In this document: positions 1 to 11,210 of the stretch, one piece after another
How the letters are laid out: every line of letters begins with the position of its first letter
How positions within the stretch are numbered: position 1 is the stretch's first letter
IMG/VR virus record: IMGVR_UViG_3300017788_000032
Coordinates: 1-54,252 of that record
Reading direction: 5' to 3' (one strand)
Length of the DNA stretch: 54,252 bases
Source of the DNA: a virus
Lineage: Duplodnaviria; Caudoviricetes
Notes under the pieces: generated by a model
Database searches by the model: none
The model's input: the letters and a program-made list of their open reading frames with translations, nothing else
What the model was told of the DNA's origin: nothing
Program-made: the position numbers and the translations under genes

Positions 1-335
1 GGCGTCTCTGTTGGTGTTTCTGTAGGCGTAGGCGTCTCTGTTGGCGTGGGCGTTTCTGTAGGCGTCTCTGTTGGTGTTTCTGTAGGCGTAGGCGTCTCAG
101 TAGTTGTTTCAGTAGGTGTGAGCGATGGTGACAGCGATACAGACGGAGTAGGGGTTTGCGTGCTTGTCGTAGTGGGTGTTTGTGTAGGAGTTCTTGTTAC
201 TGTCGGTGTAGGAGTTCTAGTTGGAGTTCTTGATGGGGTTACTGTAGTTGTAGGTGTAATAGAGGGAGTAATAACGGGTGTTCTCGTCATCGACGGTGTA
301 ACGGTCATAGTAGGTGTATTTGTAGGCGTAGGGTA
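1..335 (-). repeat. Coding Thr-Pro/TPTE low-complexity repeat with a 60-bp duplication
   Basis: Bases 1-38 recur identically at 61-98; the translation is [14 protein letters not shown]. Confidence 0.85.
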
Positions 336-1028
336 TGCACTGGTTAGCAAGAAGTTTGCAACATAACTAGAATTATCACTGTCAAGTTCAAGAATTTCTA
401 AGCTTTTAATTTTTTCTTCTTCAGAAACAGACAATTGTGAACTATTTACTAGATGAAAATTTTCAAAATTAAATACTGAATCGGGTAAAATTGTGAGTTT
501 TAAATTAAACACGTTTAATGCAAGATTACCATTTACTACAGTAACTGAAGGATAAAAAGTAGTTATGTTTTGTGATTCTGGGTAATACGTGTATGATACC
601 GGTGTATCGATAGGGAGACCAGAATCTAGAAACGCTACATTATTAGGTAATATATTGGCAACTAATCCTTTTTCAATATTAACAATTTCATTATTATCAT
701 CAAAATCATATACTATTTTTAATGTAGAATAATAAGTGTTATCAATACCGGACGGTATTACAGTAAGAGTAGTAGCTCCTTTAAAGCTGCCTAAATCTGC
801 ACTAAGAGCGGTATTAGAAATAGGGTAGCCCCAAGGGAATATTAATCCCCCGTTTGCAGTAAATGGATAAACAAATGTGCCTGTAGTTTCTGAGAACAAA
901 CTACCGGTAGCTGTTGTGGGATATAAAATGGAAGTATCATATACCGGATCAACAAATAAATAATGGTTTATTATTGACGGTTGTCCAGCTTCTTGTACGC
1001 TGGACAAAACGTAAGACACAGAATTCAC
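1..1028 (-). CDS. Thr/Pro-repeat (mucin-like) putative virion protein, truncated by the window edge
   Basis: Not in the ORF track because it has no stop in the window. Open frame from GTG at 1028 ([18 protein letters not shown]...) runs into [14 protein letters not shown]...[11 protein letters not shown] up to base 1. TAAATA lies 5 nt upstream of the GTG. Confidence 0.8.
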
Positions 1029-1068
1029 ATTATTATTTACTAAAAATACACTGAAATATACTTATAAA

Positions 1069-8737: not shown

Positions 8738-8765
8738 ATATTAATATATGCTAGACTTAAATCAA
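8738..8765 (-). promoter_or_regulatory. sigma70-like promoter at the head of the glycan cluster
   Basis: TTGATT-16 nt-TAATAT, then 6 nt to GTG at 8731. Confidence 0.65.
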
Positions 8766-8771
8766 GATGAA

Positions 8772-11210
8772 TTAATTGTGGAATCTAATGTCAGCACTGA
8801 CCAATGAGCCGGTGTCTATAGAGAAGAAGTCCTGTATATACAACTTCCAAGTCCCGTTGGCAGAGCCAGCCGAGATGTTATTGTAAATTGCGAGAGATGT
8901 ATTATAAGGCCCTGAAGGACATCCATTAGTAGGATCCATAGGGAAAGTATTTGCAATACTGTTGGGTCTAAAGAATCCAGAAGAATAGCCGTCCCAGGGA
9001 GTTAATATGGCGCTGTCAAGTACTACTGTGGTATTACTAGCTGCATTACTGCCGATTTGACCTGCAAGAATGCTTGTTGTCGTACCATCTGGTGCGACTA
9101 ATAGCATTACAACGTCTTCAGGAAAATTGTGAGAGTAATTGTTAAGTTTTACAGATACCCGTGAGCTATTACTCGTCAATCCAGATACATTAAATTCTAA
9201 AGGATAGGGAGTAGCTATAGCGTTATCATTTATTATTAAATTAGTTGTAGTTGACGGGAAAGATGTGTAGTCGGGTATAGTTTGTGTAGGTGTCGGTGAT
9301 GGGGAATTCGTAGGCGTGATAGAAATTGTTGGTGTAAGGGTTGGAGTTTGTGTGAGCGTAGGTGTCACTGTAGGTGTGGGTGTATTTGTTGCTAGAGGAG
9401 AAAGTTCGTGAACTCTTAGTTGAGCTCTATATAAGCTACCAACGTCTACACCTGCAAAGTCTTGAATATATAGACTCCACGTACCATTTACAGCAACAGC
9501 GGCTAGATAATCGAATACTGAAAGGCTTGTATTATAAGGTCCGCTTGGGCAAGGGCCGTCAAACGGGAATGTAATATCAGATGTATTAACATTAAAGTTA
9601 CCTGAGGAATAACCATTCCAAGGTGTTGGGTTCTGTCCATCGAGTATCACTGTAGCATTATTGGCACCTAATGTACCTACTCTACCGGCAAGAATACAGG
9701 CAGTTACACCATCAGGAGCAACCAATAACATTGCAACGTCTGATGGAGCAGAGTGCGTATAGTTTTCAAGTTGAATTGAAATTCTAGAAGAGGTATTAAC
9801 TATACCACTTACAGTAAAGGTCATAGGATAGGGGCTTGCGGTAGTACCATCATTAATAATTGTATTGGTATTGTTAGAATAGAATCCAATATAATCAGGC
9901 GGAGTAGTAGTCGGGGTTACTGTTTGTGTAACTGTGGGTGTTAATGTTTCTGTAGGTGTGTTAGTAGGTGTCTCTGTTGGTGTAGGTGTCTCTGTGGGTG
10001 TAAAAGATATAGTGGGAGTGTTGGTCGGTGTTTCAGTAGGCGTGGGTGTCTCTGTGGGTGTGAAGGATATGGTAGGCGTGTTAGTGGGTGTTTCAGTAGG
10101 CGTGGGTGTCTCTGTGGGTGTGAAGGATATGGTAGGCGTGTTAGTGGGTGTTTCAGTCGGTGTGGGTGTTTCAGTAGGTGTAATAGAAATAGATGGTGTA
10201 ATTGATATTGTGGGTGTCACCGTAGGTGTACGGGTTAATGTAGGTGTATTAGAAGAAGTGACTGTAGGCGTTGGTGTTACTGTCCTAGTTGGCGTCATTG
10301 TAGGTGTTTCTGTTGGTGTAGGTGTCCTTGTAAGAGTTACGGTAGGTGTAACTGTATTAGTGGGAGTAAGTGTGGGTGTGGGTGAATTGCTAGGAGTGAT
10401 TGTAGGTGTAATGGAAATAGTGGGTGTGATAGTAGGTGTAATAGAAATTGAAGGCGTAACTGTCGGTGTTGGTGTATTAGTAGGAGTGACTGTAGGGGTA
10501 ACGGTAGGGGTAACATAAAACCCATTTTCCTGAATATTTTTAATAGAGAAATTAGTTTTATTAATACCATTACTAAATGCAAAAACGGGACATACGGTTT
10601 CAGGAAAACTATAATCTAAATTTACTGTTGTTATGTTTTTATAATCTTGACCTTTATTTCTATGATCTACTACAATGGTTTTGCCTAAATTTGTTATTCT
10701 AGCCCTAAAGCTATTGTACTCAGAGCCGGAGGCTGATTGTTTATATAAAAATATGTTTTTATTTTTTAATGTTGTTCTGGAAAGTAAATTAAACCCTTGA
10801 GTGTAGCCTGTACGTACTGTAAGCGTGTTAGGTACAGGTGTGTTAAATCCGCCTTCTCCTACATCATCTGCGCCAAAATTGCCAGTAATATCTGCACCAA
10901 TTACTGCTACAGCGTTTTTAATGCCCGGGTAATTTAATATTGAGGGTACATAAAATGGGAAGAACGGAACATATATGGTTGATATTGCAGTTAGACTCGT
11001 AACACCTAGACCTGGCCCGGGACTCCCACCATAAAAATATTTATCTGCGTCATCACTATCAATAAAAAAGAGACTAAACCCCTCAGAACCTGAAACATTA
11101 ATGCCATAGCAAGAGTAATCAAACGAAACTATTATATCTCTAGTAGTGTCTAAAAACTTTAGACTGTATAATAATGAGGTTTTATTTGCTTCGGTTAATT
11201 CGTAACTCAT
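8772..11210 (-). CDS. Modular virion adhesin candidate: L-type lectin-like domain, Thr-Pro stalk, two proprotein-convertase P-like domains
   Basis: N-term VSFDYSCYG...EGFSLFF...GLG...IGADITGNF; long TP tract; two copies of YP.F.VSG...[13 protein letters not shown]...NGTW.LYIQDF...D.GSL. Confidence 0.7.
9961..10200 (-). repeat. About four tandem 60-bp coding repeats ([20 protein letters not shown])
   Basis: Rows starting 9961, 10021, 10081 and 10141 align with period 60; the two middle copies differ at only 2 positions. Confidence 0.92.

Follow-up and report, generated by a model that had tools for sequence, protein, structure and literature searches.

The characterized members of glycosyltransferase (GT) family 60 act on polypeptides. 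In the accessible text of the sources, Gnt1 modifies hydroxyproline of Skp1 (PMC6939170), the Trypanosoma cruzi enzyme acts on Thr of mucins (PMC3769586), and the Skp1 pathway continues from Gnt1 to the two-domain enzyme PgtA, which joins GT74 to GT2 (PMC6939170); the available part of a preprint mentions forms with an N-terminal GT74 and a C-terminal GT2 domain in brown algae and “some bacteria” (bioRxiv 10.1101/2024.04.23.590721). Phages are also known to glycosylate virions, and here too, by the accessible text of the papers, transferases encoded by mycobacteriophages modify the phages’ own virion proteins in the cytoplasm, with capsid and tail-tube subunits bearing glycans on their C-termini (Freeman et al. 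2023, as cited in PMC12619734), and virions of phage XacN1 contain at least two glycoproteins attributed to that phage’s glycosyltransferases (PMC5852040). Here, we describe a gene cassette at positions 3 to 11210 (minus strand) of the IMG/VR virus record IMGVR_UViG_3300017788_000032, a stretch of 54,252 nucleotides that we call the window, in which a GT60 gene and six further enzyme genes lie between two genes for proteins with Thr-Pro (TP) tracts. The best-supported reading of this cassette, made probable by sequence comparison, is that it glycosylates the phage’s own TP stalks.

The cassette consisted of nine minus-strand genes separated by gaps of -4 to +40 bases and placed after baseplate genes. 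Read in the direction of the genes, it began with TP2 (8772-11210), an 812-residue modular protein delimited by open reading frame (ORF) and tract analysis, followed by the GT60 enzyme (7463-8731; PF11397), which has a conserved C-terminal extension, and by a 317-residue protein with a predicted GT-B fold (6505-7458). Next came a GT-A-like protein of 264 residues, whose assignment from ESM Atlas rows is a lead only (5714-6508), a 281-residue protein with a predicted GT-A fold (4872-5717), a class-I S-adenosylmethionine-dependent methyltransferase (4313-4861), a NodU/CmcH-type O-carbamoyltransferase (2724-4316), and a fusion of an HtrL_YibB domain (residues 5-254) with a weakly GT-A-like C-terminal domain containing an EDD motif (1069-2727). 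The last gene, TP1 (3-1028; 342 residues in the window), encoded a globular N-domain of 225 residues and a TP tract running off the contig end. All seven enzymes lacked a hydrophobic segment, with a maximum 19-residue Kyte-Doolittle mean of 1.30, and are predicted to be soluble. No flippase, polymerase, lipid-priming or export gene was found by Pfam among the seven enzyme genes. A preliminary description of the window, made from the sequence alone, had claimed this gene content and tight packing, with which the ORFs, gaps and family matches agreed, and had placed the cassette at the end of the baseplate run, where gp25-like and gp6-like genes indeed lay upstream in the same run. Its view of 3-1028 as a TP stalk gene stood as far as the tract is concerned; the gene is cut by the contig end, and its full architecture lies out of view.

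The GT60 assignment of 7463-8731, also proposed in that description, was secured by a match to PF11397 (“GlcNAc”) at an E value of 2.6e-67 and 228.2 bits, far above the gathering cut-off of 21, and by a match to phrog_24687 at 4.3e-166; PF11397 is equated with GT60 in the accessible part of PMC6418280. Within the motif LQLDSHHRF, residues D94, S95 and H96 were invariant in all 11 aligned phage sequences. We take this DxH/DxD motif to be metal-binding. The phage enzyme has its catalytic domain family in common with the protist enzymes (Gnt1 of Dictyostelium and Toxoplasma, and the T. cruzi UDP-GlcNAc:polypeptide alpha-GlcNAc-transferase); it is predicted to be soluble like Gnt1, and its putative acceptor is Thr-rich and Pro-flanked like the T. 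cruzi mucins. Unlike the protist enzymes, it is encoded by a phage, with relatives in many bacteria, and it carries an extra C-terminal domain of about 125 residues (residues ~297-422) that was conserved and matched no family. Sequence searches of the PDB with the GT60 enzyme, its profile and the HtrL fusion returned nothing meaningful.

The second constant component was the HtrL-GT fusion. Its N-terminal part matched HtrL_YibB (PF09612) at 3.7e-14 and 53.4 bits against a gathering cut-off of 24.1, and it was rejected as a YibB equivalog at 55.8 bits against the 264.9 of TIGR02192 (NCBIfam); 1069-2727 is therefore a member of the HtrL_YibB family and not a YibB equivalog. The C-terminal half was weakly GT-A-like, with matches to phrog_842 (5.4e-6) and to the TET-associated glycosyltransferase family, TAGT (0.022). 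GT60 relatives numbered 196 in viral contigs and at least 7,364 clusters (90% identity) in the protein database at an E value of 1e-5, among 8,000 scored candidates, and all 120 of the clusters listed carried PF11397, under names that were generic at most. In the best 80 of the 196 viral relatives, searched by tblastn with the window’s proteins, the HtrL-GT fusion was matched in 66 loci, the 317-residue GT-B protein in 22, the carbamoyltransferase and the 264-residue protein in 9 each, and the methyltransferase and the 281-residue protein in 2 each. These matches lay on the same strand as GT60 in every matching locus except L054, which had a weak minus-strand match to the 1047-residue protein encoded upstream of TP2. 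Among 50,697 isolate phage records, GT60 occurred in four, XacN1, Xoo-sp13 and the Stenotrophomonas phages CM1 and RAS14 (43-48% identity), and the full-length HtrL-GT fusion occurred in exactly the same four (41-42% identity). The 66 of 80 loci and the identical set of four isolates thus indicate that the unit is GT60 plus the HtrL-GT fusion, and the cassette appears to combine this conserved pair with inner genes that vary, an arrangement like that of glycan-diversity loci. In three of the loci (L047, L063 and L077), the translation of the GT60 match at the tblastn coordinates contained a stop codon.

The two flanking proteins of the window are distinct in build. In TP2, an N-domain is followed by a TP tract at residues 229-443 (DNA 9882-10526), a P-domain-like module, a second tract at residues 601-658 (DNA 9237-9410) and a second P-domain-like module, and a 60-nt tandem repeat of 3.8 copies lies inside the gene at 9952-10181. 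The tract of TP1 occupies residues 226-342 (DNA 3-353) up to the contig end. The N-domains of TP1 and TP2 showed no mutual similarity, and tblastn of the TP2 N-domain against phages gave no match. TP1 homologues stood next after the HtrL-GT gene in 17 of the 80 related loci. A near-identical strain, from lake water sampled in another study, was represented by a 12.9-kb contig over 8270-11300 with 57 substitutions and no gaps. The strain comparison spanned 7467-11300 of the window, and among the 39 listed of its 91 differences, 9 synonymous and 1 non-synonymous fell in GT60 and 22 synonymous and 7 non-synonymous in TP2, many of those in TP2 being third-position changes within the TP repeat. Apparent joints in this comparison mostly had sides of fewer than 30 letters and were all rejected as repeats or DNA of other organisms. 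As the differences were mostly synonymous, GT60 and TP2 both appear to be maintained by selection. A plus-strand “GV-repeat” ORF of 194 residues at 9934-10518 was rejected as a gene, being an antisense reading of the TP2 Thr-Pro codons. A third TP-bearing protein of the window, 707 residues long (22744-24867, minus strand), had a short tract at residues 192-225, a VanY peptidase domain and tape-measure-like matches, and is apparently tail-associated.

The association of GT60 with TP tracts was tight among relatives of the window. In 18 loci sharing the 1047-residue neighbor, the distance from the end of a TP ORF to the GT60 gene downstream of it was 37-118 bp in 14 and about 1.5 kb in the other 4. 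In another lineage (L053, L064 and L065), a TP protein lay 44-55 bp upstream of GT60 and had no detectable similarity to the window’s TP family outside the tract. With the 1047-residue protein as an anchor, a single-sequence search gave 4 loci only, and an alignment-based search gave 78 fetched loci, of which 25 with less than 6 kb downstream were dropped and 32 others were searched as whole records. GT60 lay within 10 kb downstream of the anchor homologue in 21 loci, every one of which had a TP ORF. Of the 32 whole records, 12 had a strict TP pattern, 3 of them together with GT60, and the 20 TP-free records, one of them 196 kb long and 93% complete, had no GT60 at all. Every GT60-bearing locus or record among the relatives of the 1047-residue protein (24 of 24) thus had TP tracts, and the table of GT60 against TP read 24/0/9/20, with a raw Fisher p of 5.6e-8. 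A sample of arbitrary viral contigs was also drawn by the presence of a (TP)5 tract, with a control picked by a P-loop codon pattern from contigs of at least 20 kb. PF11397 was found in 6 of the 44 searched records with a (TP)5 tract; at 20 kb or more the counts were 6 of 27 against 0 of 31 in the control (p 0.007), and at 100 kb or more they were 4 of 5 against 0 of 5 (p 0.048).

A similar association was found around bacterial GT60 genes, in 79 loci kept from 157 relatives, where distance bins served as the internal control. The density of TP tracts was 28.4 nt/kb within 0-1.5 kb of GT60 and 20.4 nt/kb at 1.5-3 kb, falling to 3.5 nt/kb at 3-5 kb, 2.0 nt/kb at 5-7.5 kb and 0.5 nt/kb at 7.5-10 kb, and a tract lay within 1.5 kb in 19 of the 79 loci, distributed over 8 phyla. 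A bacterial copy of the module was present on the chromosome of the isolate Jiulongibacter sediminis JN14-9 (L427, 7960-15163), in the order GT60 (306 residues), a 262-residue TP protein, a divergent GT60 (420 residues), a carbamoyltransferase and a fusion of an FkbM methyltransferase with HtrL (780 residues). It was flanked by genes for UDP-glucose dehydrogenase and an epimerase and by restriction-type genes, with no phage genes. Its TP protein starts with Arg-Arg and a hydrophobic stretch, possibly a signal of the Tat type. In Sphingomonas and other Pseudomonadota, a TP-tract ORF of 1,200-1,450 residues overlapped the GT60 match (L463, L474, L475, L482, L483, L484 and L490), so that enzyme and tract appear to be fused in one protein, and in L479 such an ORF ended 6 bp from the match. 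We favor the link between GT60 and TP tracts because of the adjacency in the window’s clade, the independent upstream TP family, the bacterial distance decay in 8 phyla and the co-occurrence in 24 of 24 relatives.

The inner genes of the cassette encode enzymes of several kinds. The preliminary description had named a methyltransferase, a carbamoyltransferase and an HtrL-GT fusion, and family matches were obtained for all of them: 4313-4861 matched PF13489 at 3.3e-8 and related families, and 2724-4316 matched both carbamoyltransferase domains (PF16861, 4.5e-61; PF02543, 1.5e-21) and phrog_1601 (1.3e-119). NodU-type enzymes carbamoylate oligosaccharides; 2724-4316 was rejected as a NodU equivalog, as it reached 164.8 bits (3.2e-48) against a cut-off of 1000 for the NodU model. 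The three remaining ORFs, 4872-5717, 5714-6508 and 6505-7458, had no Pfam, PHROG or NCBIfam match, and PDB profile searches with the 317-residue and 281-residue proteins found nothing. Predicted folds upheld two of the three as the GT-like proteins they had been taken for. The AF2 model of 6505-7458, built from 30 relatives, had a predicted local distance difference test score (pLDDT) of 93.6 and a GT-B fold. Its top Foldseek matches were the GT90 protein O-glucosyltransferases POGLUT2, POGLUT1 and Rumi (2.6e-6 to 2.9e-5); VIA Z values ranged from 13 to 15, with GT90 at 14.4 tied with many GT4, GT5 and GT20 enzymes, and among the 30 relatives PF05686 matched one (0.011) and PF13524 matched three. 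The model of 4872-5717 (pLDDT 83.7) had a GT-A fold, with Foldseek matches of about 1e-6 to B4GALNT1, SpsA and TarP, and its FFCDDY motif was invariant in the alignment. For 5714-6508, the ESM Atlas structural rows were GT8, Nucleotid_trans and TOD1_MUCI70 at TM scores of 0.61-0.64, which leaves it as the lead described above. Further sugar-related genes lay far from the cassette, all on the minus strand, namely an RmlD-like reductase/epimerase, a GT2-like transferase and a glutamine amidotransferase domain protein (45765-46601, 51888-52571 and 52568-53131), and they may supply or extend sugars.

The closest phage relatives of this system are XacN1, Xoo-sp13, CM1 and RAS14, which have GT60 and the full-length HtrL-GT fusion in common with the window; they differ as jumbo phages of another lineage with other inner cassette genes. 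In XacN1, genes for GT60, a carbamoyltransferase, two ORFs and the HtrL-GT fusion lay beside a gene for a 3313-residue protein with an in-frame TP tract, near baseplate genes, and ORF334, one of the glycosyltransferases to which the virion glycoproteins were attributed, was a GT60 homologue. The accessible text of PMC5852040 does not name the enzyme family, nor does it single out TP tracts as targets. Beyond that remark on XacN1, we found no paper on a link between GT60 and Thr-Pro tracts, whether phage or bacterial, in a search outside which most subscription journals lay. The preliminary description knew of no such pathway in a T4-like phage; this stood for the pairing of GT60 with TP tracts in phages, which is the new part here, and not for virion glycosylation by phage enzymes or for GT60 in protists, both of which were already known. 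The mycobacteriophages are alike in modifying their own virion proteins with phage-encoded transferases, and their sites, as far as the available text of those papers describes them, are C-termini of capsid and tail-tube subunits and not mucin-like tracts. The chlorovirus PBCV-1 likewise has a virus-encoded pathway of several soluble transferases that glycosylates its capsid, and its transferase A075L was among the fold matches of the 317-residue GT-B protein (8asa, E value 2.6e-4). Unlike the phage of the window, PBCV-1 is a eukaryotic virus; it makes N-linked atypical glycans on its capsid protein, and we know of no GT60 in it.

Glycosylation of the phage’s own TP-tract proteins would take place in the cytoplasm of the infected cell, while these proteins are being synthesized, and our inferences on acceptor, sugars, sequence of steps and benefit are as follows. 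The soluble GT60 enzyme would add the first sugar to Thr of the TP tracts in both flanking proteins and probably in other TP-bearing virion proteins; by analogy with the family, this sugar would be alpha-GlcNAc from UDP-GlcNAc. A prolyl hydroxylase (PF13640) was above the cut-off in none of five GT60 phage records that are 97-100% complete, with one sub-threshold match at 24.3 against 27 bits, so a hydroxyproline route of the Skp1 type is unlikely, and Thr is the more likely acceptor, as it is in the T. cruzi mucins. The HtrL-GT fusion would then add the next one or two sugars. The variable inner genes would finish the chain through the GT-B enzyme, the two GT-A-like enzymes, methylation and O-carbamoylation; like the genes of an O-antigen locus, they vary between phages. 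The outcome would be baseplate-attached appendages whose linkers carry a coat of glycans, and the preliminary description supposed that such appendages would be stiff and protease-resistant.

Several observations weigh against this reading. No TP ORF was present within the fetched 10 kb in 43 of the 80 GT60 loci, and in the 62 loci outside the window’s clade only 3 were adjacent and no distance decay was found. The preliminary description had regarded GT60 occurring independently of TP genes as evidence against itself; the 43 loci are of this kind in part, as their whole records usually had TP tracts elsewhere. The strict TP pattern, which misses known TP genes found by a looser measure, was present in 24 of the 43 GT60 records; of those at 90% completeness or more, 4 of 7 had it. 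Among the relatives of the 1047-residue protein, the other 9 TP-bearing records lacked GT60, all being fragments of 9-54% completeness. In a maximum-likelihood tree built from 54 homologues of that protein, GT60 changed state 5 times and TP 4 times, and in one clade of 10, beside clades with both traits, both were absent in 9 members; with so few state changes, the raw 24/0/9/20 table rests on few events. An independent-pairs sign test on 5 pairs was not significant, with TP changing in the same direction as GT60 in 1-2, in the opposite direction in none and showing no difference in 3-4. The (TP)5 enrichment consists of raw counts regardless of relatedness or habitat, and shared habitat could inflate the associations because many aquatic phages and bacteria have TP linkers. 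The glycoproteins of XacN1 virions are not named in the available text of PMC5852040. The claim of O-glycosylation of the phage’s own TP stalks is therefore carried by the comparative link between GT60 and TP tracts, tight in the window’s clade, and is held back by the loci lacking a nearby TP gene and by the phylogeny-corrected test.

The remaining points of this kind also speak for remodeling of the host surface, in which the enzymes would build or decorate a lipid- or nucleotide-linked oligosaccharide for host lipopolysaccharide (LPS), lipooligosaccharide (LOS) or exopolysaccharide, for example as a block to superinfection, and the TP genes would be mere neighbors in a variable fiber region. 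In PHROGs, both the GT60 and the carbamoyltransferase family carry the category “moron, auxiliary metabolic gene and host takeover”, carbamoylation of oligosaccharides is what the NodU family does, the 43 loci without a nearby TP gene fit such a role, and so do the RmlD-like, GT2 and amidotransferase genes elsewhere in the window. HtrL_YibB relatives in E. coli, Salmonella, Campylobacter and Acinetobacter are moreover tied to LOS loci in the accessible text of PMC4172580, so that action on host glycans, which the preliminary description had listed as a refutation, keeps some support. We nevertheless consider host remodeling rather improbable, as the seven enzymes include no membrane segment, flippase, polymerase or priming transferase, and as the characterized GT60 enzymes in the available reports take polypeptide acceptors. 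The steep clustering of TP tracts around bacterial GT60 genes is left unexplained by it, GT60 was absent from the TP-free relatives, and the XacN1 virions, by the same partial account as above, contain glycoproteins.

Protein glycosylation may instead be aimed at other targets, either capsid and tail-tube ends as in the mycobacteriophages (PMC12619734, in its accessible part) or host proteins, with TP adjacency reflecting a shared hypervariable structural region. The low adjacency outside the window’s clade (3 of 62 loci) and the non-significant corrected test are consistent with such targets. The bacterial distance decay and the Jiulongibacter locus, in contrast, pair TP proteins with GT60 outside phage structural modules, and in the Sphingomonas and other Pseudomonadota loci the tract and the enzyme apparently form one protein, which makes other targets an improbable explanation of the cassette. 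Hypermodification of DNA, in which the transferases and their partners would decorate hydroxymethylated phage bases and which the preliminary description had likewise named as a refutation, is very unlikely: for it speak the position of the XacN1 cassette near DNA polymerase and RNase H genes and the weak likeness of the HtrL fusion’s C-terminal half to beta-glucosyl-HMC alpha-glucosyltransferase (phrog_842) and to TAGT, a likeness that covers the generic DxD region of GT-A enzymes, and against it a ThyA/hydroxymethylase-family gene in 1 of the 5 near-complete GT60 phage records (positive control 10 of 14 genomes), TET/JBP in 0 of the 5 by a search that had no positive control, and the bacterial chromosomal GT60 copies that adjoin TP proteins.

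Modification of TP tracts by the phage’s own enzymes, the reading we prefer, resembles the Skp1 pathway in having a GT60 initiator followed by a two-domain diglycosyltransferase, and the domain order in the forms with N-terminal GT74 and C-terminal GT2 matches that of the HtrL-GT fusion. From this analogy we raise, as an idea only, that HtrL_YibB might correspond to GT74. A broader and more speculative possibility, which we put forward tentatively, is that GT60 and HtrL-GT could be the core of a widespread, unrecognized cytoplasmic O-glycosylation of “mucin type” in prokaryotes and phages, an initiator and a bifunctional diglycosyltransferase like Gnt1 and PgtA and possibly ancestral to them. 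It would place a short, lineage-variable glycan, here methylated and carbamoylated, on Thr-Pro linkers of phage appendages and of proteins exported by bacteria of 8 or more phyla.

The window spans an entire IMG/VR contig, about 25% of a genome by the completeness estimate, and its source was a low-GC myovirus with distant T4-like genes. PHROG and Pfam matches (T4_baseplate, Terminase_6N/6C) identified gp6 and gp25 of the baseplate wedge, sheath, tube, a gp17-type terminase and a clamp loader, and primase and helicase genes also belonged to the T4-like set. Near-identical DNA was found only in freshwater, lake and lake-sediment metagenomes, in 11 sequencing datasets from 9 studies, none on record as RNA, and the stretch 1-11210 had no megablast match among isolate phages. 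The genes from 20163 to base 3 formed one run, all on the minus strand, in which a block at 11213-20163 precedes TP2 with the gp25-like and gp6-like wedge genes, a 1153-residue protein with a PKD domain and the 1047-residue protein, in that order, followed by the nine cassette genes. The sequence TATAAATA stood at 20169-20176, immediately upstream of the gp25-like start, and was not enriched in the window (10 matches against 14.4 expected); sigma-70-like and terminator-like sites occurred at chance level. Elsewhere, the large terminase gene (37141-39327) contained an insert of about 159 residues directly after the Walker A motif (38575-39051, minus strand), and the Terminase_6N match did not pick up again before residue 252. 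With its terminal ...SN and the T that follows, the insert looks intein-like, and it matched no Hint or intein family in Pfam. Between the terminase and tail tube genes lay a gene for a Gly_rich_2 domain protein (9.3e-12; 36133-37128, minus strand), where GC content reaches a local maximum of 0.46.

Very few phages have been shown to glycosylate their virions with phage enzymes. If the reading favored here is true, the cassette would represent a second route with a different mechanism, directed at the mucin-like linkers of tail appendages and defined by an enzyme family that is very common in aquatic phages, with more than 7,000 clusters at 90% identity. Such a sugar coat might plausibly influence how phages recognize hosts, resist proteases and are recognized by antibodies, and Thr-Pro linkers, usually seen as inert spacers, would be open to a new reading. 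In simple systems, such as co-expression in E. coli or a harmless Bacteroidota isolate with this cassette, the origin of eukaryotic cytoplasmic and mucin-type O-glycosylation would then become approachable.

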